This document shows positions 23,201 to 38,336 of a DNA stretch of 64,000 bases, piece by piece. The stretch is from an uncultured Methanosarcinales archaeon (lineage in GTDB: Archaea > Nanobdellota > Nanobdellia > Woesearchaeales > UBA11576). Numbering within the stretch: the stretch's first letter is position 1; each line of letters opens with the position of its first letter. The stretch covers positions 24,834 to 88,833 of the forward strand of contig CAZNGE010000001.1 of NCBI GenBank assembly GCA_964572875.1. Reading direction: 5' to 3'. The position numbers and the translations under genes are program-made. The notes beneath the pieces are model-generated. The model ran no database searches. It saw only the letters and a program-made list of their open reading frames with translations, and was not told the origin of the DNA.

Positions 23201-25042
23201 ATGATTTTGGAAGAAAAAAGAGGTGAACATAGAGAACCTAAGGCAGATTTCCTGTTCGAGGTATCCTGGGAAGTATGCAACAAGGTCGGCGGCATAAACA
23301 CGGTCATAAAGAGCAAGATACCGCAGACAGTCAGCAGGTACGGGGACAAGTACTGCCTTGTAGGGCCCTATTTCCATGACAAGGTCAAGGGCGAGTTCGA
23401 GGAGCTCGTGCTGCCCGAAGAGTACAGGGAAGGCAGCGAGGCGCTGAAGGGCATAGGCATAGTGCCCCACTACGGCAAGTGGCTCACAGAAGGGTCTCCC
23501 AACACTCTGCTTCTTGATTTCCAGCCGTTCTTTGAGAGGAAAGATGAGGTGAAGAAGAAGCTGTGGGACATGTACAAGATAGATTCGCTCAACTCCTCGA
23601 ACGAGTTCGACGAGCCCGCCGTGTGGGGCTGGGCCGTCGGGATAATAATCGAGAGTTTCTTCAATAGGTACAACGCGGAATGGAAGATTGCCACCGTGTT
23701 CCACGAGTGGCTTTCAGGCGCAGGGATACTCTACCTGAAATCCCAGAAGTGCAGGATAGCAACTATATTCATAACGCACGCCACTGTCATGGGCAGGTGC
23801 CTGGCGAATGCAGGAGTGGACCTGTACCAGCGTGACGGAGAGGACAAGCTCCTGCTCGATAGGATGGATTTCGATAAGGAGGCGTATGACCGCCACATGC
23901 AATCGAAGCACCAGCTCGAGAAAGCCAGCGCAAACGCCACGGATGTCTTCGCGACGGTCTCGGAGATAACCGGGATGGAGGCAGAGCACGTGCTGAGGAA
24001 GAAGCCGGACCTGCTTGTGCCGAACGGCCTCAACCTTGACGATTTCCCGACGGTAGAGGAGAACTCAATCAAGCACAGGATATTCAGGGACAAGATATAC
24101 CATTTCCTGCTCTATTATTTCTTCCCTTACTACCACCTCGACATAGACAACACGCTGATCTACTTCATAGCGAGCAGGTACGAGATGAGGGACAAGGGCA
24201 TTGACATATTCATAAAGGCCTTGAGCAGGCTCAACCAGAAGCTCAAGGAGGAAAGGTCCAAGAAGAGCATCGTTACGTTCTTCTGGGTGCCTTCAGGAGT
24301 GAGAGGCGTCAAGCAGGAGATCGTAGAGAACAAGACCATGTTCAAGGATGTCGAGGACAGCCTGAAGGACAATTCAGAGCATGTCATGTGGCGCCTGCTG
24401 AGCACTTTCGTCGGCGACAAGCCGATAATAAAGGAGACCATATTCGACAAGGCGTTCCTGGCAGACATAAAGAAGAAAGTGATGAAGTTCAAGAGGGAAG
24501 AGACCGCACCTCCGATATGCACCCATGATCTCATAGACCATAATGATGAGATAACGCGCAGCCTCTCTGAGGAAGGCCTCCTGAACTCGAGAGAGGACAA
24601 GGTAAAGGTGATATTCTATCCGATATACCTGACAGGCGCTGACGGGCTTCTCGACCTGACATACTATGAGGCAATACAGGGCGCGCATCTCGGCGTGTTC
24701 CCCTCATTCTACGAGCCTTGGGGATACACCCCTCTGGAGGCAGGAGCGCTCGGGGTCGCATCGATAACGACAGACCTTGCGGGATTCGGGAAATACATTG
24801 AAGGGAAGACTGACGAGAAGTGTCTTGGCATCTGCGTCCTGAAGAGGCTGGGCAGGCCGGACGCGGAAGTGATAGACGCGCTGTATGACAGGTTATACAC
24901 GTACGCAGAGATGCCGAAGAAGAATCGTGTCGACAACAAGCTTGAGGCCAGGAAAATGGCCAGCCTTGCGGACTGGGACAGCCTGATACTGAATTACTTC
25001 AACGCTGAGGATATGGCTATAGACAGGGTATTCAGCGGATGA
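23201..25042 (+). CDS. Glycogen synthase, eukaryote-type (GT3 family)
   Basis: FLFEVSWEVCNKVGGINTVIKSK N-terminus (the LFEVAWEVANKVGGIYTV signature of GT3 glycogen synthases). 613 aa. Confidence 0.85.
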   Translation: MILEEKRGEHREPKADFLFEVSWEVCNKVGGINTVIKSKIPQTVSRYGDKYCLVGPYFHDKVKGEFEELVLPEEYREGSEALKGIGIVPHYGKWLTEGSPNTLLLDFQPFFERKDEVKKKLWDMYKIDSLNSSNEFDEPAVWGWAVGIIIESFFNRYNAEWKIATVFHEWLSGAGILYLKSQKCRIATIFITHATVMGRCLANAGVDLYQRDGEDKLLLDRMDFDKEAYDRHMQSKHQLEKASANATDVFATVSEITGMEAEHVLRKKPDLLVPNGLNLDDFPTVEENSIKHRIFRDKIYHFLLYYFFPYYHLDIDNTLIYFIASRYEMRDKGIDIFIKALSRLNQKLKEERSKKSIVTFFWVPSGVRGVKQEIVENKTMFKDVEDSLKDNSEHVMWRLLSTFVGDKPIIKETIFDKAFLADIKKKVMKFKREETAPPICTHDLIDHNDEITRSLSEEGLLNSREDKVKVIFYPIYLTGADGLLDLTYYEAIQGAHLGVFPSFYEPWGYTPLEAGALGVASITTDLAGFGKYIEGKTDEKCLGICVLKRLGRPDAEVIDALYDRLYTYAEMPKKNRVDNKLEARKMASLADWDSLILNYFNAEDMAIDRVFSG

Positions 25043-25070
25043 GGATATGTTTAGGTAAGGAGATGCTAAA

Positions 25071-26033
25071 ATGGAGCTGAGAAAAGATTACATCCTTGAC
25101 AGGTGGGTCATCATAGCCACCGGAAGAGGGAAGAGGCCCCACGAGTTCAAGACCGAGGATGACATATATGCTGATGATAAGGGTCCTGAGAAATGCTTCT
25201 TCTGCCCTGGCAACGAGTCCATGACCCCTCCTGAAATAGGCAGGGTGAAGGACGACAAGGGCGGATGGAAGCTGCGCTGGTTCGCGAACAAGTTCGCTGC
25301 TGTCGACAAGAGCGGCGACGCCAGTATCAAGACAGACAACAATTTCTTCACATACTCTGACGCATATGGGAACCATGAGGTCATTGTCGAGACTCCTGAC
25401 CACATGAAGCAGATGATAGACCTTAATGAAAAGGAGATAATGGACCTGCTGAAAGTATACGCACGTCGCATAGACGTGCTGATAAACGAGCCTAACATTA
25501 AGTACGTGTGCGTTTTCAAGAATGAAGGTAAGAAGGCAGGCACATCAATCGTGCATTCGCACAGCCAGCTGATATCGCTCAACACTGTGCCGACAGAGGT
25601 CACAGCGAAGATAGAGGCTGCAAAAAGGTTCCCTTCATGCCCTTACTGCGACATAATCAAGACAGAGGCAAAGGGCCACCGGCATGTCCACGAGGACGAC
25701 ACGACTGTGACGTTCACGCCTTACGCTTCAAGGTTCAACTTCGAGGTCTGGATATTCCCGAAGAACCATTACAAGACCCTGAGAGACTTCTCTGATGACG
25801 AGATGTTCGACCTTGCGGCTGCTATGAAACGGGTGCTGAAAAAGCTGAAGGACCTTAACGCCAACTTCAACATGGTGATGTACTATGCGCCCAAAGGCGA
25901 GGACCTGCACTTCCATATAGAGTTCCTGCCCCGCATCGCGACATGGGCAGGGTTTGAGCTGGAGTCAGGGGTCACGATCAACGTCGTGAGCCCTGAGGAC
26001 GCGGCCCTGTTTTATAAGGGCGAGCATAAATAA
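25071..26033 (+). CDS. Galactose-1-phosphate uridylyltransferase-family (GalT/HIT) nucleotidyltransferase
   Basis: CFFCPGNE zinc site and HSHSQ (HxHxQ) active site. 320 aa. Confidence 0.8.
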   Translation: MELRKDYILDRWVIIATGRGKRPHEFKTEDDIYADDKGPEKCFFCPGNESMTPPEIGRVKDDKGGWKLRWFANKFAAVDKSGDASIKTDNNFFTYSDAYGNHEVIVETPDHMKQMIDLNEKEIMDLLKVYARRIDVLINEPNIKYVCVFKNEGKKAGTSIVHSHSQLISLNTVPTEVTAKIEAAKRFPSCPYCDIIKTEAKGHRHVHEDDTTVTFTPYASRFNFEVWIFPKNHYKTLRDFSDDEMFDLAAAMKRVLKKLKDLNANFNMVMYYAPKGEDLHFHIEFLPRIATWAGFELESGVTINVVSPEDAALFYKGEHK

Positions 26034-26071
26034 TAAAAATCCCCCACACCCAGCCAATACTGGTGATAATC

Positions 26072-27448
26072 ATGACGGTGAACGAAAAGATATTCAAAGC
26101 TTATGATATACGGGCAGTTTATCCTGATGAGATAGACGAGGATGCAGCATACATCATAGGACGGGCGTTCGTGACATTCCTTGGCTGTAAGGAAGTTGTT
26201 GTGGGCCAGGACATGCGCAGCAGCTCCCCTTCGCTTTTCGATGCCCTCGCCAGAGGGATAACTGACCAGGGAGCCGATGTCATAGACATAGGGAAGAGCA
26301 GCACCCCTTTCTTCTACTTCGGTACTGCAGGCCACGAGGCAGGTATCATGGTCACTGCTTCCCACAATCCCGCCAAGTACAACGGCTTCAAGATGTGCAG
26401 GGACGGCACAGTGCCTATCGGAGGGGACAGCGGCATGCAGGAGATAAAGGCCCTTGCGGTTGCTGGCGGGTTCAAGGATACTGAAACAAAGGGAAGCATC
26501 AGAAAGAAAGACATAACAGATGATTTCATCACGCACAACCTCAAGTTCCTGGACAGCAGCTTGTCAGGAAAGAATCTGAAGATAGTGGTCGATACCGGCA
26601 ACGGCATGGGAGGCTACACATTCCCGAAGGTATTCGAGAGGGTCGAGAACATAGAGGTTGTCCCTCTCTACTTTGACGTAGACATGACATTCCCTAACCA
26701 CGAGGCGAACCCGATAAAGCCTGAGAACGTGAAGGACCTCCAGGAAGCTGTCATCAGTAACAATGCTGACTTCGGCGCTGCGATAGACGGTGACTGCGAC
26801 AGGTGCTTCTTCGTGGATGAGAAAGGGGATGTAGTCACTGCTGACCTTATAACAGCCCTGCTCGCGAAAGAGCTTCTCAAGGACAATCCCGGAGCAAGGA
26901 TACTCTATGATCTCAGGTCAAGCTGGGCCACAAAGGAGGTCATCGAGGAGAACGGCGGAAAGCCGGGCATGTGCCGCGTCGGCCACGCGTTCATAAAGAA
27001 GCAGATGAGGGAAGAGGACGCCCTGTTCGCAGGAGAGCTATCAGGTCATCTCTATTACCGGGACTCATTCGTCACAGAGAGCTCGATAATATCCACTCTG
27101 CTTATAATCAACCTGATACGAAAAGAGGGCAAGGCATTGTCCGAGCTCGTAAAGCCGATAAAGAGGTATTTTCCCAGCGGAGAGATAAATTCAGAGGTCG
27201 GGGACAAGGAAGGCAAGATGAAGGAGCTCGAGGGGATGTTCAGGGCGGAGGCGAAGGTCACTTCGCATCTCGACGGGATAAAGCTTGAGTTCGACGATTG
27301 GTGGTTCAATGTGCGCGCCTCGAACACAGAGCCCCTGCTGAGGCTGAACCTCGAGGCCAAGACGGAAAAGAGGATGGAGGAGATGCGTGACAGGATCGTC
27401 GCGATAATCCGCAGAAAAAGAGATGAAGATATCACACAAGCTTCCTAG
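26072..27448 (+). CDS. Phosphoglucomutase/phosphomannomutase (alpha-D-phosphohexomutase)
   Basis: TASHNPAKYNGFK phosphoserine loop, GDCDR and GELSGH motifs. ATG 26072 with GGTGAT RBS. Track start 26063 is GTG. Confidence 0.88.
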   Translation: MTVNEKIFKAYDIRAVYPDEIDEDAAYIIGRAFVTFLGCKEVVVGQDMRSSSPSLFDALARGITDQGADVIDIGKSSTPFFYFGTAGHEAGIMVTASHNPAKYNGFKMCRDGTVPIGGDSGMQEIKALAVAGGFKDTETKGSIRKKDITDDFITHNLKFLDSSLSGKNLKIVVDTGNGMGGYTFPKVFERVENIEVVPLYFDVDMTFPNHEANPIKPENVKDLQEAVISNNADFGAAIDGDCDRCFFVDEKGDVVTADLITALLAKELLKDNPGARILYDLRSSWATKEVIEENGGKPGMCRVGHAFIKKQMREEDALFAGELSGHLYYRDSFVTESSIISTLLIINLIRKEGKALSELVKPIKRYFPSGEINSEVGDKEGKMKELEGMFRAEAKVTSHLDGIKLEFDDWWFNVRASNTEPLLRLNLEAKTEKRMEEMRDRIVAIIRRKRDEDITQAS

Positions 27449-29252
27449 ACTGGGCATAAGCAGGGACGGCTGCGACGCGGATGTCTGCGTCCTTGCGAAT
27501 AATCTGGGCAGTTTCCTTTTCTTATCTCCTTCATCGATATCCAAGTTCAACGGTTTCTTCACGAACTACGGGCTTAAGCTGTACAAGACGGTGCAGAACA
27601 TAGGTCTTCTCGACCAGGCGCCTGTCGAGATGGAGAACAGCCTGACGGCGATAAGCAGGAGGTATCCTGGAAACTCTGAAAGGATAGTATGCCCTGACAG
27701 CATACAGGGCTTGATATACACCTTGTCCAAGAAAGGGAGCATATTCATGGACTTCGACTTCCGCAAGATGGATGACATGAGGTCGTTCGGGAGGATATAT
27801 GAGGTAACGCAGGAAGACGGCAGGATACTGGTCGAATTCACCAAGATGACCGACGAGAGGGAGGACAGCACAGACGGGGTCGCTGAGTTCAGCTTCTTTG
27901 CGGCGATACAGCCTAAGGGGTTCAGCCCACAGACAGACTATAAGTTCATAGACTATTGGCTTGAGAGCGATTACAGGTATGACAGGGAGAGGAAAGACCC
28001 TCCTGACAGGAGATATGTCTACAGGCCTTTCATGATAAAGGCGAAGCAGCTCCTGATCGGCGTCGGCAAGACAAAGGCGGATGCGATTGCAGAGCTCGAT
28101 AAACTGAAGAAGTTCAAGGCAGGAAAGAAGGATTATAAGACGATAGACAAGAAGAAGGATGCTGAGGCCGCTGCCGCTTTCATCTGCGCCCAGGAGTCGC
28201 TTGAGAAGATGAAGTCAGAGGACATCGACGGCACGACGAGGCTGTACGCAGGCTATCCCTGGTTCTTCCAGTTCTGGTCAAGGGATGAGAACGTTTCCCT
28301 TGGCGCGCTCATGAAGCTGAAGCAGTTCAGGACAGTGAAGGGCATACTTTTCAAGTACCTTAAGAACATCGGCAAGGACGGCAGGCTCGCCAACCGCGTG
28401 CCATCGTCGCATCTCGGCTCTGCAGACGGTGTGGGGTGGTTCTGGAAACGTATCGGAGATTTCATCGCAGCACTCAAGGAGCTGCACCTGCGCGAGAAAT
28501 ACCTGTCGCCCAAGGAGATGAAGGACATAAGGGACTCTCTGGCGGACTCGATAAGAAAGATAGAGAAGAACTACAAGTCAGGCGGTCTCATAACGAACAA
28601 GGACAATGAGACCTGGATGGACACCGACCCTGGCGGCCAGGACCCGCGCGACGGGAAGAGGATCGAGGTGCAGGCCCTGCATCTCAACATGCTCAGGCTG
28701 ATGCATGAGCTCAGCGGCGACATGAGATACAAGACAAAGGAGACGAAGATGAGGAAGGAAGTGATAAAGGGCTTCTGGAACGGGAAGCTGATAGCTGACG
28801 GTGTGGATGATTATACTATAAGGCCGAATATTTTCATAGCGTATTACGTTTATCCTGACCTGCTCCCGAGGAGAGAGTGGCAGACATGCTTTGAGAACGC
28901 ACTGAAGAAGATCTGGCTGGACTGGGGTGGCCTTTCATCCATAGACAAGGGCAATCCCCTCTTCACGCCGGAATATACAGGAATGGATGACAGGAGCTAT
29001 CACCGCGGGGACTCATGGTACTGGATAAACAACCTTGCTGCGATATGCATGTTCAGGAACAATGCTATTGAGTTTGAAGGAAGGATAAAACAGATAATCA
29101 AGGCAAGCTCTGAGGAGATACTCTGGCACGGCGCGATAGGGGACCATGCAGAGATAAGCTCTGCCTCGCATCTTTCGTCGAAAGGGTGCTTTGCGCAGGC
29201 ATGGAGCGCTGCCATTTTCATTGAGCTGATGATGGAGACGATGGGAGGATGA
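27423..29252 (+). CDS. Glycogen debranching enzyme / amylo-alpha-1,6-glucosidase family (GDE C-terminal (alpha/alpha)6 domain)
   Basis: GYPWFFQFWSRDENVSLGAL (the GYPWF..GRDT-type motif of this family) and C-terminal GDSWYWINNL. 5' end overlaps pgm by 26 nt, so the true start is uncertain. Confidence 0.72.
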   Translation: MKISHKLPRLGISRDGCDADVCVLANNLGSFLFLSPSSISKFNGFFTNYGLKLYKTVQNIGLLDQAPVEMENSLTAISRRYPGNSERIVCPDSIQGLIYTLSKKGSIFMDFDFRKMDDMRSFGRIYEVTQEDGRILVEFTKMTDEREDSTDGVAEFSFFAAIQPKGFSPQTDYKFIDYWLESDYRYDRERKDPPDRRYVYRPFMIKAKQLLIGVGKTKADAIAELDKLKKFKAGKKDYKTIDKKKDAEAAAAFICAQESLEKMKSEDIDGTTRLYAGYPWFFQFWSRDENVSLGALMKLKQFRTVKGILFKYLKNIGKDGRLANRVPSSHLGSADGVGWFWKRIGDFIAALKELHLREKYLSPKEMKDIRDSLADSIRKIEKNYKSGGLITNKDNETWMDTDPGGQDPRDGKRIEVQALHLNMLRLMHELSGDMRYKTKETKMRKEVIKGFWNGKLIADGVDDYTIRPNIFIAYYVYPDLLPRREWQTCFENALKKIWLDWGGLSSIDKGNPLFTPEYTGMDDRSYHRGDSWYWINNLAAICMFRNNAIEFEGRIKQIIKASSEEILWHGAIGDHAEISSASHLSSKGCFAQAWSAAIFIELMMETMGG

Positions 29253-30145
29253 AACAGGACGATAACATGGAATACGCGATAGCTTTGGATGTCGGGGGAA
29301 GCAAGATGACCACCTGCCTCGTGGACGAGACAGGGAAGATAATCGACGGTGAGCGCCGGCTGACCGATGCCCCTGAAGGCAGGAGGAAGGTGCTGTTAAA
29401 CATAATATCAGAGATAAAGAAGATGATGGACAAGCACAAGGACATCAGCGTGAAAGGGATAGGCATAGGCATGCCAGGATTCATAGACAGCAAAGGGAAA
29501 GTGGTGTTCATGCCCAATGTTCCGCTTGTCGGGTTCAACATAGTGAATAAGCTCAATAAGAGGTTCAAGTGCCCCGTTGCTGTAGAAAATGACGCGAACT
29601 GCTTTGCGCTCGGTGAATACTCTTTCGGCAGGCACAAGTCAAAGGTCCTGCTCGGCCTCATAGTAGGCACAGGCGTGGGCTGCGGGATAGTATCAAACGG
29701 AAAGCTGATATCAGGTTGCGGAGGCGGCGCAGGGGAGATAGGCCACAACCTGCTTGACAATTCCACAGATAAGCTTGTTGTCAAGAAGAATGATTTCGAG
29801 TCTGTGTGCTCAGGCCCTAACATCAGCAGGCGGTACTCTGAAGCAGGAGGAAAAGACACTATCCCGAAACAGGTATTCGCGGCAAAGGATCATGCAGCTA
29901 GGAAGGTGATAGATGATGAGTACAACTGTCTGGGCAAGTTGTTGGGATCCATGGTCAATACACTGAACCCGGACACCATAGTCCTGGGAGGCAGCGTGAG
30001 CAAGTCGCTGAAACCAGGACGGCTAAGGAAGGAGATCGTGAAATACTCCATACCTTTCTCTGCAAAGCTGGTCAAGGTCAAGCAGAGCAGGCTTGATGAC
30101 ATAGCCGGTGTGCTTGGCGCTGCAGCCTTGATATTCGAGCAGTAG
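29249..30145 (+). CDS. ROK-family sugar kinase (glucokinase-like)
   Basis: ALDVGGSKMT N-terminal ATP motif and GxGxGxG plus CxCGxxGC ROK zinc motif (CSGPN..). Start 29249 or 29267. Confidence 0.8.
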   Translation: MKQDDNMEYAIALDVGGSKMTTCLVDETGKIIDGERRLTDAPEGRRKVLLNIISEIKKMMDKHKDISVKGIGIGMPGFIDSKGKVVFMPNVPLVGFNIVNKLNKRFKCPVAVENDANCFALGEYSFGRHKSKVLLGLIVGTGVGCGIVSNGKLISGCGGGAGEIGHNLLDNSTDKLVVKKNDFESVCSGPNISRRYSEAGGKDTIPKQVFAAKDHAARKVIDDEYNCLGKLLGSMVNTLNPDTIVLGGSVSKSLKPGRLRKEIVKYSIPFSAKLVKVKQSRLDDIAGVLGAAALIFEQ

Positions 30146-30295
30146 GGAGGCTCTAGAGCCATGATTCTGCAGTCTCATCTGCCAGGATTACCCATCCCCA
30201 GACCTTCTGTTACCACTTAACAGAGACAACAAAACGAAACATTTATATATTAGTTCTGAACCTTATATCATTAGTTGGTTGGAGGTGGCTGAGAG

Positions 30296-30928
30296 ATGTA
30301 CTTACCTGACAAGATAGAGAAAAGCATTTCTAGGCTGGAGAGGCTTGCTGATAAAGGCGGGTTTGATGACGATCTATATCTGAGTACAGCTGAGCAATGC
30401 AGCTACATTGATGGAGATGAGACAAAGAGGATGTACACTAGGATGCTCGACCTTCTTGTCGCGCTTTCAAGCTCTGTCAGGCTCGGATTTCATGATACTG
30501 CTGAAGGCATAAGGCTGCTTTACAATGCAGAGTGCGGCGGCAAGTTCAAGATAGACACCGATAGGGCGTTCTCAATCCTTGAAGAGGCGGCATTCACAGG
30601 AAAGTGGAGTGGAAGCCTGCAGGAGTGCATCACCAAGACCCTGAATCTGGATGACCATGCCAAGATGGATTACAGGACCAGGCGAAACAGGGACAGGATG
30701 CATGACCTGACAACAGCATATTCGCTGCTCCTCGCTTCAAAGGATGACAGCTCCCTGAACGCCAGGGCGCTGGTCGCGATGAGGGTGTATGTCGACAGCA
30801 ACCCCTCATCCAAGGATTTCCTTCCTGACGACCTGCGGGCAAGGGTGTTCCCTGAAGAGTTCATGAAGGCAAATGAAGGCAAACGACAGACAGAAAATAG
30901 TCTGAACAAAGATAGAGGTGCGCAATAA
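30296..30928 (+). CDS. Hypothetical protein
   Basis: GGAGGTG RBS. 210 aa. No recognisable motifs. Stop overlaps the start of the next gene. Confidence 0.45.
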   Translation: MYLPDKIEKSISRLERLADKGGFDDDLYLSTAEQCSYIDGDETKRMYTRMLDLLVALSSSVRLGFHDTAEGIRLLYNAECGGKFKIDTDRAFSILEEAAFTGKWSGSLQECITKTLNLDDHAKMDYRTRRNRDRMHDLTTAYSLLLASKDDSSLNARALVAMRVYVDSNPSSKDFLPDDLRARVFPEEFMKANEGKRQTENSLNKDRGAQ

Positions 30929-31935
30929 TGATCCAGAAATCAATACACATACTCACGCAGCTCCAGCATCCGAAAGGCCTGTTCGTGGCTGCGCTTGACA
31001 AGAGCACGCACTACTCAAGGCAGGCATGGATCCGCGACAACATCTACGCGAGCCTCGGCTTCGAGGCGGTTAAGAGGCATAAGGAGGTCGTGAAGGCATA
31101 CCAGGCATTGCTTGACGTGCTGAAGAAGCACGAGTACAAGATAGACTGGGCGATCGTCGAGAAGCCGCAGCATCGCTGGCAGTACATCCACGCACGGTTC
31201 GACCCTGAGACATTCGATGAGTTCCAGGAGGACTGGGGCAACAAGCAGAACGACGCCATCGGAGCTTTGCTCTTCAAGATAGGCGACCTCGAGTCCAAAG
31301 GCATAAGGGTCATACGTGACAAGGATGACGAGCGCATAATCCAGAAGCTCGTATATTATCTTAACTCAATACAATATTGGCATGACAAGGACAGCGGCAT
31401 GTGGGAGGAGAACGAGGAAGTGCATGCTTCCTCTGTCGGAGCATGCGTAGCTGGCCTCAAGAAGATATCCAAGATAGTTGATGTTCCTCAAGTTCTCATA
31501 CAGAAAGGTGAGGAAACCTTGAACCAACTCTTGCCAAGGGAATCTGACAGCAAAGACACAGACCTTGCGCTTCTGTCGCTGATCTACCCGTACAACGTGG
31601 TTTCAGATGAGCAGAGGATGCAGATACTCCAGGATGTTGAGAGAAAGCTTGTCAGGCAGCGCGGAGTGATCCGTTACGCAGCCGACTTCTATTTTAACAG
31701 GAATGGAGAAGCAGAATGGACATTCGGATTCCCTTGGCTTGCAATCATCTACAAGCAGCTGAACAGACCTGACAAGGCAGCGTTCTACATGCGCAAGACC
31801 CTTGAGGTCGTCAACAAAGCAGGCGAGCTCCCTGAGCTCTACTACGCCAACACCGACGAGCACAACGAGAACACTCCGTTGGGATGGGGCCAGAGCCTGA
31901 TGGTTGTGGCGATGACCAAGAACCAGACAGCGTAA
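30928..31935 (+). CDS. GH15-like (glucoamylase/glucodextranase family) glycoside hydrolase catalytic domain
   Basis: QAWIRDNIYA (the W-x-R-D motif), GMWEENEEVH (the LWEE general-acid region), GWGQSL. Roughly 335 aa (alpha/alpha)6-like. Confidence 0.6.
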   Translation: MIQKSIHILTQLQHPKGLFVAALDKSTHYSRQAWIRDNIYASLGFEAVKRHKEVVKAYQALLDVLKKHEYKIDWAIVEKPQHRWQYIHARFDPETFDEFQEDWGNKQNDAIGALLFKIGDLESKGIRVIRDKDDERIIQKLVYYLNSIQYWHDKDSGMWEENEEVHASSVGACVAGLKKISKIVDVPQVLIQKGEETLNQLLPRESDSKDTDLALLSLIYPYNVVSDEQRMQILQDVERKLVRQRGVIRYAADFYFNRNGEAEWTFGFPWLAIIYKQLNRPDKAAFYMRKTLEVVNKAGELPELYYANTDEHNENTPLGWGQSLMVVAMTKNQTA

Positions 31936-31939
31936 TAAG

Positions 31940-33772
31940 ATGAACCTCGAACATATCGCAGAACAGATGAGAATCAAAGGATTGACTAGACAGGCAACCC
32001 TTCTTGAGACAAGGGCAGGGCCTGTGTATCTTCTTACATTGCTACAGAAAAGATGGGAGCAGAAAGTCGTTGATTCCATCGGAGAAGATGCTTTCTATGA
32101 GCTGACTGCAGAATTCATCAGGAACCTCGGGCTTTTGAAAATAAAGAACGCTCTGGACGATTGCGAGACATTCACGCCAAAGGAAGTCGGGATGAATCCT
32201 CTTGAGATAGAGGTCAAAGGCAATGTGGATACGAAAAGCGTAAGGAAGGCAGGAAAGATATATGATGAGCTGGAAAGGCTTGCTTCCGAAGGGTCGATAA
32301 TCATAGCCAGCGAGCTTAAAGAGAGAATCTATGACGACGAGGACATGATCTACAGGATATACAAGGACTCTGACAGTTCTTACGAGTCGAGGGATTTTTT
32401 CTACAACGCATTGTTCAACAGGACAGAAAGATGCAAACGTATGTTTGACATGGACGCTCCCACAGATATTTTGGTTGACCAGATAAGGATAGTGAATGAC
32501 CTGACCGGCCCGGGAGACGCAGGATCAAGGAGAGCATTCAAGGAGCTTGAAGCCTGCTGCAGGGAGATGAAAGACGCTGGCAATGAAGACATGCACCGCT
32601 TGAAGGGAATCTTTGAAGAATCATCCTCAACAATCATCGGGATTGCCGAGAGTGTGTTGAGGTCTGAACAGCAGGATCCTGGTTCGAATGATCATCTTTT
32701 CAGTTCATGGATAGCTGAGAGGAAAAGGACTGCCAGGGAAAGGGTAATAGATAATGAAAGGAGATTGATGGATTTTGAACCTGACCCGCTAGAACGGGAA
32801 TTCATGAGGAATTCAAGTGACGAGCTGATAGTCGAGGCATTTCTTGAGAATGAATTGCTCTCCGAGGCGGCATACGAGGAGAATTCTGACACCGACAGGC
32901 TGGTAGGGATATTGATGAAAAGCCCGATACAATGCAGGCAGTATTTCATTGACATGCGCAATTCATTCCTTAACAGGTTCAGGAACGCATCGATAGGTTT
33001 CAAGCAGATCCTTGAAGGAGGACCGGTGACGAATCCTGAAGCAACTGAAGTTTCCAGTATGCAGAACCATGCAGGTTTTGCCAACATAAAGTATTCTGAT
33101 GATACAAAACAGGAGCTTGAGAGGATTGTAGAGCAGATGGACGAGCTGTTCAGGCAGCTGCCGGACATCTCAGCCCTTCCCACACCCTCAAAGCTCAAGA
33201 GGAAGAGACACCTCAAATACATCATGGAAGAGATGCCGAAAGACCCGACAGACATCACGTTCGGTAATGACTCTGGCTGCTGTATATTCGTTGATGAGGA
33301 CAGGGAAAAGATCCATAACGGAACTTTTGTCCCTGCTTACCTGCTACATCCGGAAGTGAGGATTTTCGGCCTGTACCGTGTCGAAGGAGATAAGAGGCAG
33401 AGGATGGGTATGGTTCTGGCCTTCGAGACAGGATATGAAGACAACAGGGAAGGCAAGGTCCTGGCGTGCAACAGCCTGGAGCTTTCAAGGCTCGGCATTG
33501 CAGGAGGCAATGAGACTGTTGAGAAGCTTGTTGATTATGCTGAGGACTGGCTCGCAGCCTATGCCAAGGAGAACGGCTATGATGGCGCTTGCATGGGTAG
33601 GCACAGCTATAACACTTCTGTGAATTACAGCTCGAAGACAGGCGAGACCGTAGATGAAACCCTAACATTCAGGAATTTTCCTCTTATGTTCTACAGCGAC
33701 ATACTGCAGACCAGGGACGAGCATTCTATGGCCACAAGGGATGATTCCTGCTACTGGCTCTGGAGAAAGTGA
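31940..33772 (+). CDS. Large hypothetical protein (610 aa), orphan
   Basis: Long coherent ORF with no recognisable family. Followed after 33 nt by the archaemetzincin-like gene. Confidence 0.55.
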   Translation: MNLEHIAEQMRIKGLTRQATLLETRAGPVYLLTLLQKRWEQKVVDSIGEDAFYELTAEFIRNLGLLKIKNALDDCETFTPKEVGMNPLEIEVKGNVDTKSVRKAGKIYDELERLASEGSIIIASELKERIYDDEDMIYRIYKDSDSSYESRDFFYNALFNRTERCKRMFDMDAPTDILVDQIRIVNDLTGPGDAGSRRAFKELEACCREMKDAGNEDMHRLKGIFEESSSTIIGIAESVLRSEQQDPGSNDHLFSSWIAERKRTARERVIDNERRLMDFEPDPLEREFMRNSSDELIVEAFLENELLSEAAYEENSDTDRLVGILMKSPIQCRQYFIDMRNSFLNRFRNASIGFKQILEGGPVTNPEATEVSSMQNHAGFANIKYSDDTKQELERIVEQMDELFRQLPDISALPTPSKLKRKRHLKYIMEEMPKDPTDITFGNDSGCCIFVDEDREKIHNGTFVPAYLLHPEVRIFGLYRVEGDKRQRMGMVLAFETGYEDNREGKVLACNSLELSRLGIAGGNETVEKLVDYAEDWLAAYAKENGYDGACMGRHSYNTSVNYSSKTGETVDETLTFRNFPLMFYSDILQTRDEHSMATRDDSCYWLWRK

Positions 33773-33804
33773 AACCAGAAGACACACGAACTAAAGGTGA
33801 AAAG

Positions 33805-34506
33805 ATGCAAAGACTAAGAATCAAGCCGGTATTCATAATGAACCAGGAAGGGCTCTCTGAGCTGGAAAAGAAAGCAATCCTGGACGGAGCCAGGGAATTG
33901 CGGAGCATAGCAGGTGTTGAAGGCCTCATTGAGATCAAGGATTTGGGTGTGTGGAGAAACCGCGACCATGTCAATCCAGATGGTTCATTGAAGAGGTATC
34001 AGAGCGTGGAGTGGTACATACAAAGAGGAAAAGGAAAGAATAACAAGACAGGACAACTGAAGACAGAGTTGATACTGAATGATCTGGAACTTGAGCCTTG
34101 GAGAGATACACAGGACCATTATGACCTGCTTATCTGCCATAGAGATGTCACTTCCTTGTACTTTGATGTGGCGTTTCTAGTAGGCCAAGGGAGACCGGAT
34201 ATTGGAGCAGTGATATCCACCAACAGATTTAGAAACAGTCAACTAAGCGACAGGGAGTTGTATGAGTGCTTGAAAACTGCCGCAATACACGAACTCGGTC
34301 ACGTGTTCAGGCTGCCTGGCCAAGGAAAAAACACCTATAGGAGTGCCGGGAATGATATAGAGAACGACCATTGCACAAACGTATGCGTTATGCGACAAGG
34401 GGATCATGTCCCAAGTGATTGGGTTAGGATAAGCAGAGACAGATTGAAGAATGGCGCATTATGTAGGGAGTGCTCAAGGAATCTAAAAAAATATTTCCGG
34501 AAATGA
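33805..34506 (+). CDS. Archaemetzincin-like zinc metallopeptidase (M54-like), divergent
   Basis: HELGHVF HExxH motif, then HCTNVCVM (C-x3-C-x-M) and CRECS, resembling the archaemetzincin HExxH...C..C.M...CxxC arrangement. ATG 33805 with AAGGTGA RBS. Track start 33769 is GTG. Confidence 0.55.
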   Translation: MQRLRIKPVFIMNQEGLSELEKKAILDGARELRSIAGVEGLIEIKDLGVWRNRDHVNPDGSLKRYQSVEWYIQRGKGKNNKTGQLKTELILNDLELEPWRDTQDHYDLLICHRDVTSLYFDVAFLVGQGRPDIGAVISTNRFRNSQLSDRELYECLKTAAIHELGHVFRLPGQGKNTYRSAGNDIENDHCTNVCVMRQGDHVPSDWVRISRDRLKNGALCRECSRNLKKYFRK

Positions 34507-34600
34507 CCTGAATATTTCTAAAATAAAACCAATATTTCGGAAATGTATGCGAACTGAGCGGAAAGTTTCTGGAAAATCAGCAAGTTTTGCGGTTTCTCGT
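34487..34600. promoter_or_regulatory. Array of TTTCCGGAAA/CGGAAA and AATATTTC repeats upstream of 34655 gene
   Basis: Perfect palindrome tttccggaaa at 34494, tttcggaaa at about 34536, cggaaag about 34558, ggaaaa about 34570, gcggtttc about 34590. AATATTTC three times. Confidence 0.3.
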
Positions 34601-34654
34601 CAATAAGACTTATTAAAATATAAAACATATCCTTTTACACGTAGGAGGTGTGAG

Positions 34655-35143
34655 ATGGTAAAAATATTGGTCTCAGTTCCCTATGCCCGAAGCTATGAAG
34701 GCGAACCGCAGATTGTCAGGGAATTAAAAGAAAATGATGAGAGGAGCCTTGGATTGTATTTACATGACTTGTTTGCAGAAGTCCCGAGAAACCAGATGGA
34801 ACTTGAAGCATTGGTCACTATGTATTGCTGGGCAGAATGTCCTACCACTCGTTGTTCATTCAGCCTTGAATACAGGACGCTGAGAGACCCGACAGAATAT
34901 GAAGGTGAAAAAGAACTATTGGCCAGCATTAAGATAAAAGAGATTATTGAAGCAGGCACTGACTTTGATATTGAAGCAGGCGTGTCACACTTTGAGATAG
35001 GGTTCGCAGGTGAAGAGGAGCTAGTGAGACCATTGGTTGAGTATTTTGAGTTCCAGCACTCACTACATTATATAAAAGTAAAGAAGTACAAAAAGTGGCA
35101 GAGGCGCAGATTAAGCCATTTAAAAACCTTCCTAAACATTTAA
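34655..35143 (+). CDS. Hypothetical protein (162 aa)
   Basis: GGAGGTG RBS 5 nt upstream. No family recognised. Confidence 0.45.
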   Translation: MVKILVSVPYARSYEGEPQIVRELKENDERSLGLYLHDLFAEVPRNQMELEALVTMYCWAECPTTRCSFSLEYRTLRDPTEYEGEKELLASIKIKEIIEAGTDFDIEAGVSHFEIGFAGEEELVRPLVEYFEFQHSLHYIKVKKYKKWQRRRLSHLKTFLNI

Positions 35144-35191
35144 TAATCTTGTTCAGCTAATTATTTTAGTGTTTTTAGGGGGGGTATTACC

Positions 35192-35629
35192 ATGTCTGAC
35201 TGCTTTGAGCTGAATAACCTTTTCGAGGGGATTGAAGGCGCTGTAAAAGGCGCCGCCCTGCTTTCTGAGGCCAAGAAGACAGTGCCTGGCTTTGCTGAAT
35301 ACTTTGACGGCAAGAGCAGGAGCAATGAGCACCTTGGCGCGAGGTTCGAGTCTGGCATACTCGATATCCAGCTGTACCGGCCAGGCAGGGGAGTGTTCTG
35401 CCTGATCAGCTATTCTACATCCATGGATGACCAGCAGACCTTGCGAGCTACCTTCTTCGGGAATGGCACCGAGTTCGCGAGCAAGAACAACTATGACGGC
35501 AAGGACGTGATCAGGGGCTATCAGGGCATAATGCTCGCTGAGACATACCAAGACGGCCAGGACAGCATGGCAGAGATGATAATCAAGATAAGGGGAGAAA
35601 AGGTCCACTTCGACATACCTATTAAATAG
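35192..35629 (+). CDS. Hypothetical protein (145 aa)
   Basis: AGGGGGGGT RBS. No family recognised. Confidence 0.45.
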   Translation: MSDCFELNNLFEGIEGAVKGAALLSEAKKTVPGFAEYFDGKSRSNEHLGARFESGILDIQLYRPGRGVFCLISYSTSMDDQQTLRATFFGNGTEFASKNNYDGKDVIRGYQGIMLAETYQDGQDSMAEMIIKIRGEKVHFDIPIK

Positions 35630-35662: not shown

Positions 35663-37567
35663 CTACCTTATCCTCACGGCCTCGAGGTTCCTTGGCGCTA
35701 CAGTCTCTATCCTGAACTGACGGTGTATACTGGACGCGAGGTCCAGGCATCGCGAGTTCTCCCCGTGGTTGATGATGACCTTCTTCGGCCTCGGCTGGCA
35801 GCGTGACACGAAGTTCATGAGCTCCCTGCGGTCAGAGTGTCCTGTGATCTCTATCTTGTGCACTTCCATCTTTATCTCGAGCACGTCAGGCTTTCCGGAA
35901 GAGTCGACCCTCATCACTATCTCCTTCTCGCCTTCGCGTATCCTCTTTCCGAGGCTGCCTTCCGGCTGGTAGCATGAGAACACGAGTGAGTTGTTCTTGT
36001 TGTCTGCGAGCGCCTTGAGATACTCAACAGATGGTCCGCCCACGAGCATTCCTGATGTCGCGACGATGAGGCAGCTTCCTGCCTCCTCGATGACCTGTTT
36101 CCTCTCCTTCTGGCTTCCCACCCTCTTGAAGATGGGTGACAGGAATGGGTTATTGTCTTTGTGGAATATCTGCTTGCGCACGGCAGAGTTCAGGAACTCT
36201 GGATATGCCGTGTGGATGGCTGTTATGTCCCACACCATGCCGTCGATATAGACAGGCATGGACTCTATCTCGCCTTTCCTGACCATCTCCTCGATGAGAA
36301 GCATGACCTCCTGAGCCCTTCCGGATCCCAGAGTGGGCAGGAGTATCTTGCCCTTGCGCGCCACAGTGTCCTTGACTATCTTCTTGAGCAGGTCATCCTG
36401 ATCTTTCACAGGAGGGAGCACGTTGTCCCTTCCGCCGTATGTGGACTCTATCATCAGTGTCTCGAGCCGGGGGAAGCGGGTCTCGGCCTGCTCAAGCAAC
36501 CTGGTCCTTGCGAACTTCATGTCCGCGGAATACAGCAGGTTGTGCAGGCCGTTGCCTATGTGCATGTGCACCATGGAGCTTCCGAGCATGTGGCCTGCGT
36601 TGTATAGCGTTATCCTCACGTCAGGAGTCACGTCAGTCACTTCATCATAACCCAGGCAGATCGTGTGCTTCACCATCTCCCTCACCTCTTCAGACGTGAA
36701 GATGGGGTCCTTGCCTTCTGACCTCATTATCTTGACCATGTCCAGCTGCAGCAGCGACATGATGTCCCTTGTGGGCAGGGTACAGTACACAGGCCCCCTG
36801 TATCCCATCTTGAACAGCCACGGCACAAGCCCTGAATGGTCCAGGTGCGCGTGGGTGACTATGACCGCGTCGAGCTCGTCAATCTTGAACTCAGGTGCCT
36901 CCAGGAACGGGTATGCCTCGTTGTCTGAGGCCACGTTTATGCCGCAGTCGAGCAGCACCCTCGATTCCGGCGTCTGGAGGAAAACGGCTGACCTTCCGAC
37001 CTGCCTCGCGCCTCCAAGATATGTTACGCGGACCCATTCCTCTTTCTTGCCCCTTATCCAGCCGTCGTATATCCTGTGCCCTGTCTTGTCGAGGAATTTC
37101 TTCCTGTAATCTGAATTGTCGTACAATACTGCCCTTATGCTCTCGATGAGCTTCGACCTTATCGCAGGGGTCCTCTTTATCAGCGGGACCCAGAGGACCT
37201 TCTCCCTTATCGACCTAAGTAGCTCGCCCTGCTTGCCGATGACAAGCCCTGGCTTCTCGGCGTGTATTATCACCATTGATCTCTGGGTGTCGAATATCAC
37301 ATCGCTGAGGCCTGCTTCCTCAGGGACGAGGTCCTTGATCACGCTCTCTGCCTTCTCCATCTCCATGCAGATGGCAGGGTCGGGCCTGAGCTCTATCCTC
37401 TTCTTGATCATGTCCACTATGCCCTTGATTATGCCTTTGTTGTCCAGGAAGAAGTCCTTGTCTTTGGTGTAGAGCACTATGTTGGCCCCTTCGAACGCCA
37501 TGTCGCTTATCTTGTTCGGCGGCAGGTGTTTCTGTATCTCATTCAGTATGTTTCCCAAAAGTATCAC
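35663..37567 (-). CDS. Archaeal CPSF1 homolog (beta-CASP RNase with N-terminal KH domains; FttA/aCPSF1)
   Basis: 634 aa. Metallo-beta-lactamase HAHLDHSG motif and beta-CASP region. N-terminal KH-like domains. Confidence 0.88.
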   Translation of the reverse strand: MILLGNILNEIQKHLPPNKISDMAFEGANIVLYTKDKDFFLDNKGIIKGIVDMIKKRIELRPDPAICMEMEKAESVIKDLVPEEAGLSDVIFDTQRSMVIIHAEKPGLVIGKQGELLRSIREKVLWVPLIKRTPAIRSKLIESIRAVLYDNSDYRKKFLDKTGHRIYDGWIRGKKEEWVRVTYLGGARQVGRSAVFLQTPESRVLLDCGINVASDNEAYPFLEAPEFKIDELDAVIVTHAHLDHSGLVPWLFKMGYRGPVYCTLPTRDIMSLLQLDMVKIMRSEGKDPIFTSEEVREMVKHTICLGYDEVTDVTPDVRITLYNAGHMLGSSMVHMHIGNGLHNLLYSADMKFARTRLLEQAETRFPRLETLMIESTYGGRDNVLPPVKDQDDLLKKIVKDTVARKGKILLPTLGSGRAQEVMLLIEEMVRKGEIESMPVYIDGMVWDITAIHTAYPEFLNSAVRKQIFHKDNNPFLSPIFKRVGSQKERKQVIEEAGSCLIVATSGMLVGGPSVEYLKALADNKNNSLVFSCYQPEGSLGKRIREGEKEIVMRVDSSGKPDVLEIKMEVHKIEITGHSDRRELMNFVSRCQPRPKKVIINHGENSRCLDLASSIHRQFRIETVAPRNLEAVRIR

Positions 37568-37682: not shown

Positions 37683-38336
37683 TTATTCCTTCACTCCCGT
37701 GTCTATCTTCTTTGTCAGAACTTTTTCCACGCCTGAGGATGTTACCACGACAATGTCAATGCCGTTTCCTGATGCAGAATCCCTCTGCAGCGCAGCATTT
37801 AGCGACTTGATTGCGAGGCTCTTGCCTTCCTCGACTGACAGCCCTTCCTCGTACAGGGTCTCCAGCACTCCGTACGCGAACACGCTGCCTGATCCTGAAG
37901 CCAGATAGTCATCTGCCTCGGATATGGACCCGTCAGGGTATATGTCATATATTTGCAGTCCTGTGCGGTCTGCTCCTGCGAACAGGAAATGGGATATCCC
38001 CGGTATCATGCTCATCTTGCGTATGTTTGAGTATACCATGCCTGCGAGCAGGTTGGCGGATTCCTTCACAGACACATTCTTGTTTGTCCTCAGCTTCTTT
38101 AGCCTGATCTCTGCCTTTATCAGCTTGAGCAGGAGCTGGACATCAGAGACCGTGCCTGCTGTGGTCAATGCCATGTAGTCCTCTATCGGAAAGATCTTGT
38201 CGACCCATTTGTTCGCGATGAGGTTACCTGCTGTTGCCCGCTTGTCGGCTGCAAGCACGATTCCGTCCTTGCACCTTAGGGCTATTGTTGTTGTGCCGGT
38301 TTTCATCCTATCAATATCATCTGCCATGGATAACAC
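37683..38336 (-). CDS. psmB: Proteasome beta subunit
   Basis: Propeptide followed by GTTTIALRCKDGIVLAADKRAT with the active-site Thr. 217 aa. Confidence 0.9.
   Translation of the reverse strand: MLSMADDIDRMKTGTTTIALRCKDGIVLAADKRATAGNLIANKWVDKIFPIEDYMALTTAGTVSDVQLLLKLIKAEIRLKKLRTNKNVSVKESANLLAGMVYSNIRKMSMIPGISHFLFAGADRTGLQIYDIYPDGSISEADDYLASGSGSVFAYGVLETLYEEGLSVEEGKSLAIKSLNAALQRDSASGNGIDIVVVTSSGVEKVLTKKIDTGVKE

Follow-up and report, generated by a model that had tools for sequence, protein, structure and literature searches.

An archaemetzincin-like gene beside a putative GNAT-like gene in an uncultured archaeon: an apparently lineage-specific juxtaposition

Archaemetzincins are defined by the signature HEXXHXXGXXHCX4CXMX17CXXC, where three His residues hold the catalytic zinc and four Cys residues make up a zinc-finger-like site (PMC3427221, PMC4681839). 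The canonical members AfAmzA and MkAmzA are without activity in vitro (PMC3427221), and AMZ-tk (TK0512) degrades casein (PMC4681839). A related fold is found in DUF6775, which is linked to Thi4 clusters, has no HExxH and carries a 3Cys-1His site (PMC13325395). The analysis reported here concerns two adjacent genes, called A and B, found in an archaeal DNA stretch of 64,000 nucleotides (the window: contig CAZNGE010000001.1 of assembly GCA_964572875.1, positions 24,834 to 88,833, here numbered from its first letter), the second of which encodes a divergent archaemetzincin-like protein.

Gene A (31940..33772, + strand) is an ATG-started open reading frame (ORF) of 610 aa, separated by a 33-nt spacer (33773..33804, +) from gene B (33805..34506, +), also ATG-started, of 233 aa. 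A Shine-Dalgarno-like ribosome-binding site, GGTGA, is located within the spacer at 33796-33800, and ends 4 nt ahead of the ATG of B. This layout had already been described, correctly, in a previous examination of the window by eye of the letters and their translations (the sequence-only reading), which also took A for an orphan protein and for a dedicated large partner of the protease. An alternative GTG start of B (33769, 245 aa, overlapping the stop codon of A) was set aside in favour of the ATG at 33805, as JGI calls the 233-aa form (P0014) and homologues begin near there. The two genes are probably co-transcribed, behind a glycogen operon. Taken together, the data described below make it likely that A and B are unrelated chance neighbours in this lineage, B being a divergent archaemetzincin-like protein, A a GNAT-like one, and B, together with the gene C that follows it, a compositionally foreign insert functionally not tied to A.

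The linkage of the two genes was analyzed by running tblastn searches with A, B and the two following genes, C and D, against the whole set of 40 loci fetched from genomes and metagenomes. Around the A loci, up to about 6-8 kb of DNA per side was searched, less near contig ends. Within the fetched DNA, none of the 13 independent A loci contained a B or M54 homologue, and none of the 25 independent loci with B or archaemetzincin genes contained A; the recurrent neighbourhood of the A family with M54 peptidases, envisaged by the sequence-only reading, is thus not found in independent fetched loci. The sole other contig carrying A and B together, L023 from JGI, comes from the same organism (99.8% identity). 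In DPANN genomes, A lies next to unrelated housekeeping genes, such as those for thermosome, DRG GTPase, MutS/MutL and tRNA synthetase. Analysis of neighbour enrichment around A, performed on 9 loci, revealed no recurrent family and no M54 gene; an MBL-fold gene and SPP were the only ones to occur twice, in DPANN loci closely related to each other. Judged from these comparisons, the A-B adjacency is a lineage-specific juxtaposition and not a dedicated pair.

Two syntenic relatives bear on the history of the adjacency. The first and closest is L005, with 81% identity in A. Its collinearity with the window, established by tblastx synteny, extends over positions 23691 to 33823 and starts anew at 35625. 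The 1.8 kb of the window containing B, C and D correspond in L005 to 93 nt of unrelated sequence, after which the two sequences match again from the end of D. When L005:9834-9977 is compared with window 33773-35624, the 33-nt spacer is found to be retained, together with six codons from the start of B (ATGCAAAGACTTAGAATT), and the Shine-Dalgarno sequence of B is changed from GGTG to TGTG. On alignment evidence this remnant is a deletion scar: the ancestor had both genes, and B was lost in L005, with A left intact under purifying selection. The ratio of nonsynonymous to synonymous substitution rates (dN/dS) of A is 0.20 in both the window/L005 and the window/L006 comparisons. In L006, the second relative, where A is 58% identical, A is followed by D and then by aCPSF1, with neither B nor C; the extra DNA of the window relative to L006 is exactly B plus C.

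A number of observations weigh against the chance juxtaposition. In the window, A and B are on the same strand, 33 nt apart, with a strong ribosome-binding site and no evident terminator, and the same is true of the identical JGI contig L023, which represents a further sample of this organism. The L005 scar puts the adjacency before the window/L005 split, so that it is ancestral to that clade and not brand new. The phyletic distribution of the two families is also similar, as named members of both are mostly DPANN archaea. These are the points in favour of a dedicated functional pair, with A acting as substrate, regulator or scaffold of protease B. We regard such a pair as very improbable: there is no co-localisation in the 13 and 25 independent loci, L005 lost B and kept A intact, at the dN/dS just given, L006 has A without B, and the base composition of B and C differs from that of A and of the flanking genes (see below). 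The idea is therefore largely refuted by the comparative data, and the chance juxtaposition is retained.

The identification of B comes from NCBIfam, PDB-profile and structural comparisons. Model NF033823 'archmetzin' of NCBIfam matches residues 77-170 with an E-value of 6e-10 (39.3 bits, cut-off 145). A Pfam scan returned no match other than a weak one to PF07998 (Peptidase_M54), of 14.5 bits and E 0.035, under the gathering score of 24.4. By this profile, chosen as a touchstone in the sequence-only reading, the window protein is formally a borderline case, whereas 26 of the 33 members of its subfamily match PF07998 at E <= 0.1, with a best value of 1.5e-6, and the fold match is clear. Relatives of B numbered 3 by word-index search and 41 by profile search. 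The subfamily consists of about 40 proteins, and its named members, mostly DPANN archaea, are metagenome-assembled genomes (MAGs) of Woesearchaeota or Nanoarchaeota, plus one labelled Planctomycetes. The single B sequence found nothing significant among PDB sequences by phmmer; the B-family profile, built on 33 members, matched 3zvs, 4axq and 2x7m with E-values between 4e-10 and 9e-9, and also 3lmc, which extends the range to 2e-5.

The AlphaFold model of B has a predicted local distance difference test score (pLDDT) of 92.9 and a predicted template-modelling score (pTM) of 0.91; the pLDDT drops to 58-66 at residues 171-190, which correspond to an insertion. The best PDB match of the model by Foldseek is M. 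kandleri AmzA, 2x7m (E 1.5e-9, TM(target) 0.75, probability 1.0), followed by metzincins of the ADAM, fragilysin and MMP types. An archaemetzincin-like protein with an N-terminal extension and an insertion, as proposed from the letters alone, is therefore borne out by three kinds of search. By sequence profiles and predicted structure, B is a divergent member of an archaemetzincin-like subfamily, for which the strict motif and threshold tests of membership gave a negative answer. What speaks against this assignment is that B remains under the cut-offs of both curated families, Pfam and NCBIfam, and carries an Arg at the metzincin glycine position.

The zinc-site region of B (34288..34473, +) was defined by the family alignment. 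The three motifs noticed at first sight are all there: H162-E163-L-G-H166, H189-C190-T-N-V-C194-V-M196 and C220-R-E-C223-S. Residues H162, H166, H189, C190, C194, C220 and C223 are invariant in the 33 B-family members, and conservation reaches at least 90% at E163 and M196. The metzincin Gly position, three residues after the second His, is occupied by R169 in B, by Gly in most relatives and by N, H or T in the others. H166 and H189, the second and third His, are 23 residues apart, and the distance from M196 to C220-x-x-C223 is also 23 residues. The former results from an insertion, seen against 3zvs, located between HExxHxx(G) and the third zinc His, which is 14 residues long in B and 14-18 subfamily-wide; in the alignment to AfAmzA, the 14-residue gap falls exactly between HExxHxxGL and the His-Cys dyad.

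By analogy with AfAmzA and MkAmzA, B would be a cytoplasmic zinc metallopeptidase, in which H162, H166 and H189 would hold the catalytic zinc and E163 would serve as general base. M196 would form the Met-turn, and C190, C194, C220 and C223 a structural Cys4 zinc site. The 14-18-residue loop probably covers the primed side of the cleft as a flexible flap, with a putative gating role. Both zinc coordination and peptidase activity of B are inferred from AfAmzA, MkAmzA and AMZ-tk.

The family of gene A is rare and unannotated, and those of its members that are named come mostly from DPANN archaea. Scans of A against Pfam, NCBIfam, PADLOC and PHROGs produced no match, and phmmer found nothing significant among PDB sequences. 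The statement that A is without recognisable domains thus holds for Pfam and NCBIfam, and is to be qualified by a predicted GNAT-like domain at the C-terminus. The label of orphan does not hold. A word-index search identified 13 homologues, the full-length ones being 35-81% identical, and a full HMMER search of 1.84 billion cluster representatives found 151 matches. About 50 of these are full-length, while about 100 share only profile positions ~429-605, and have unrelated N-termini. Proteins with the A-type C-terminal domain behind about 100 different N-terminal regions are 450-1145 aa long (L022:3254-5023; P0100-P0195); like the other matches, they carry no Pfam or NCBIfam domain. A scan of GTDB genomes for A identified Woesearchaeota MAGs, 'uncultured Methanosarcinales' MAGs and one Myxococcales-labelled MAG, the last matching the C-terminal domain only, with His555 replaced. 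A Pfam scan of 52 distant relatives, made in search of a bridging domain, found none, and no acetyltransferase match.

On the basis of its full-length homologues and of the dN/dS of 0.20, A is a real gene and not an orphan. In the same comparisons, the dN/dS of the flanking genes is 0.06-0.11 for GH15 and 0.04 for aCPSF1. A evolves much faster than its neighbours, with 81% identity to L005 versus 95-96% for GH15 and aCPSF1, and most of this divergence falls in its N-terminal, helical half.

The AlphaFold model of A (pLDDT 82, pTM 0.63) is divided into three parts. Residues 1-360 (31940..33019, +) form an all-helical region, according to DSSP run on the model. This fast-evolving region is specific to the full-length subfamily, being aligned by only about 50 of the 151 representatives, and no convincing fold match was found for it by Foldseek in PDB and BFVD. 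The second part, residues 353-389 (32996..33106, +), is strictly conserved and for the most part not helical, with the pattern G..Q...GGP.TNP.....S..QNH....N..YS..T. Its invariant columns, in alignment A1, are G353, Q356, G360, G361, T364, N365, P366, S372, Q375, N376, H377, N382, Y385 and T389. No other stretch of the full-length family is conserved as strictly as this one, which is predicted as coil, at lower pLDDT, between two domains. The third part, residues 420-610 (33197..33769, +), is an alpha/beta domain with a GNAT-like predicted fold. A would thus be a two-domain protein, in which a strictly conserved linker joins a helical N-terminal half to a GNAT-like domain at the C-terminus.

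The conserved core of the C-terminal domain comprises D438, G442-N-D444, C447-C448, R488-x-G490, N511-S-x-E514 and H555-x-Y-N-T559. Over 124 domain copies, the best-conserved positions are D438, G442, N443, C448, R488, G490, N511, S512, E514 and N558, and H555 is retained in 85% of them. When PDB and BFVD were searched separately by Foldseek, nearly all high-probability top matches of A were small GNAT acetyltransferases, including AtaT, KacT, TacT, Naa50, HAT1, Eis and phage acetyltransferases. Running Foldseek on the AlphaFold models, a check put forward with the sequence-only reading, was clear for B (AmzA, E 1.5e-9), and led for A to GNATs at E 0.02 or worse. In the predicted topology, N511, S512 and E514 are on β4, and H555 and N558 directly after β5; the β4/β5 region is where GNATs hold donor and acceptor. 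As the invariant Cys-Cys, R-x-G, N-S-x-E and H-x-Y-N-T would lie at this site, A may be considered, with low confidence, to be probably a transferase of acyl groups, the GNAT-like domain of which is non-canonical. The fold is probably a known one, and the family an unmodelled one.

Some results tell against a GNAT assignment. The call comes from a predicted model, with Foldseek E-values of 0.02-0.8 (probability ~1, TM(target) to ~0.5), and nothing at E <= 0.001 in either PDB or BFVD. No sequence profile from Pfam, NCBIfam or PDB sequences ties A to any GNAT, and the profile of the C-terminal domain gave 0 matches at E <= 10 against PDB sequences. The loop R517-x-G-x-x-G-G (R517-L-G-I-A-G-G), placed between β4 and α3, differs in spacing from the motif A Q/RxxGxG/A; it is conserved in the full-length subfamily only, and not across the about 100 domain-only relatives. 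The poor E-values, a TM(target) of at most ~0.5, the lack of any profile match to a PDB sequence or Pfam model, and the limited conservation of a coenzyme A (CoA) pyrophosphate-loop motif within the wider domain family would also be expected if the domain were a non-enzymatic structural or binding module, superficially similar to GNATs, and A a scaffold protein. This explanation is rather unlikely: the near-invariance of C448, R488, G490, N511, S512, E514 and N558 in 124 diverged copies suggests an active or ligand site, and GNAT acetyltransferases top both fold libraries at a probability of ~1. A predicted GNAT-like domain is the assignment kept here for A.

Gene C (34655..35143, +; 162 aa) travels with B in this subclade. 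A homologue of C, with 35% identity and E 3e-32, comes immediately after the B homologue in L007, a separate contig from the same sequencing run as L006, where the B-C pair is found after an NTP_transf_2/HEPN pair. No C was found near the distant B homologues of L008, L009, L011 and L024-L027 by using a hidden Markov model (HMM) of the two known C proteins, and the B-C link therefore comes down to two independent loci. Gene D (35192..35629, +; 145 aa) is the gene located, by tblastx synteny, between A and aCPSF1 in L006, and is 55% identical to L006:9934-10371. Neither C nor D was matched in Pfam, NCBIfam, PADLOC or PHROGs scans. The GC content at third codon positions (GC3) amounts to 0.50 in B and 0.43 in C, far below the 0.65-0.75 of GDE_C, ROK, GH15, D and aCPSF1. 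D is native-like at 0.69, and A is intermediate at 0.57. The low GC3 of B and C suggests a horizontally acquired cassette. This cassette would have been inserted between A and D in the window/L005 ancestor, and later lost, together with D, in L005; insertion followed by loss is the simplest history of the locus.

The same data raise the question of whether the functional unit is B plus C, with C as an inhibitor, substrate or adaptor of the protease, and the two genes moving as a small accessory cassette. They are adjacent in both independent subclade loci with downstream sequence, the window and L007, at a similar spacing of about 150 nt; GC3 is atypically low in both, and the two together account for all the DNA that the window has in excess of L006. 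The independent observations are only two, however, no C homologue accompanies the distant B genes, even by HMM, the 150-nt gaps leave room for separate promoters, and C has no detectable family or motif. A B-C unit is possible, and in our opinion doubtful; B and C are better described, for now, as an insert of foreign composition. Nucleotidyltransferase/HEPN pairs of MNT-HepT type adjoin B homologues in 2 of 5 loci (L007:57-1038, L009:6222-7128), and may reflect variable or accessory regions, or chance. A defence or toxin-antitoxin reading of B-C, based on these neighbours, was rejected, as there is no PADLOC match and such pairs are common. MNT/HEPN pairs are very common in archaea.

The A-B pair sits at the edge of a glycogen island, as the sequence-only reading had it. 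GDE_C, ROK glucokinase and GH15 lie upstream of A in the window; the glucoamylase-like GH15 gene is the last of them, and the gap between it and the start of A is 4 nt. Glycogen synthase, GalT and PGM are found further upstream in the syntenic relatives L005 and L006. On the other side, aCPSF1 (a β-CASP RNase) is encoded at 35663-37567 (-) and proteasome β at 37683-38336 (-). Their adjacency is also seen in L005, where it continues to ProRS, SpoU methylase and an M50 protease. An ORF of 210 aa at 30296-30928, between ROK and GH15, has no match in any library, and its slot holds an unrelated 127-aa ORF in L005 and a 121-aa ORF in L006. An extra 292-aa ORF is present between GH15 and A in L006. 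The ROK-GH15 and GH15-A gaps are thus variable slots within a glycogen cluster that is conserved in its other parts. Scans of the 64-kb window for rRNA, tRNA and Rfam families found no match.

A protease with a dedicated partner would have given a rare handle on archaemetzincin biology; the comparative data remove this handle. What the locus offers is, for B, a coherent archaemetzincin-like subfamily, mostly DPANN where named, with all zinc ligands retained and the canonical metzincin spacing broken. As it falls under the curated thresholds, the corresponding models would probably miss its members, or label them only generically. For A, it offers an unannotated family with a GNAT-like domain and invariant motifs of its own, the C-terminal domain of which recombines with many N-termini. 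New Pfam or NCBIfam models could be built for both families, and present understanding is overturned by neither. Two bolder readings can be put forward, only tentatively. A would represent an enzyme family not described before, and its C-terminal domain a new GNAT-like branch, using the invariant C448 together with N-S-x-E and H-x-Y-N-T and not the classical CoA motif, which would allow, for example, thioester-mediated or aminoacyl-tRNA-dependent acyl transfer. Separately, B would be a metzincin breaking the HExxHxxGxxH rule, with the third ligand brought in across a 14-18-residue gating loop.

Compared with the GNAT superfamily, residues 420-610 of A would have the same order of elements, with beta1, a helix, beta2-beta3-beta4, the long helix alpha3, beta5 and C-terminal strands, and, in the full-length subfamily, a Gly-rich loop ahead of alpha3, at the place where GNATs bind the CoA pyrophosphate. 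Unlike in GNATs, the canonical Q/RxxGxG/A spacing is absent, and beta5 is not followed by a predicted alpha4 helix. FGNDSGCC, RxG, NSxE and HxYNT are signatures specific to the family, in which a helical region of 350 residues and a unique invariant linker are fused to the domain.

Compared with archaemetzincins (M54, PF07998, NF033823; AfAmzA 3zvs/4a3w, MkAmzA 2x7m, AMZ-tk), B shares the predicted metzincin fold, the HExxH with the catalytic Glu, the His-Cys dyad that provides both the third zinc ligand and the first Cys, the CxxxC-x-M with the Met-turn methionine, and the C-terminal CxxC completing the Cys4 site. It differs from them by a spacing of 23 instead of 6 between the second and third His, due to the 14-18-residue insertion, and of 23 instead of 17 between Met and CxxC. 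About 35-40 additional N-terminal residues and an additional N-domain segment are also present, and R169 of the window protein replaces an otherwise strictly conserved metzincin Gly. HExxH, which DUF6775 lacks (PMC13325395), is present in B, along with the third His and the full set of four Cys residues.

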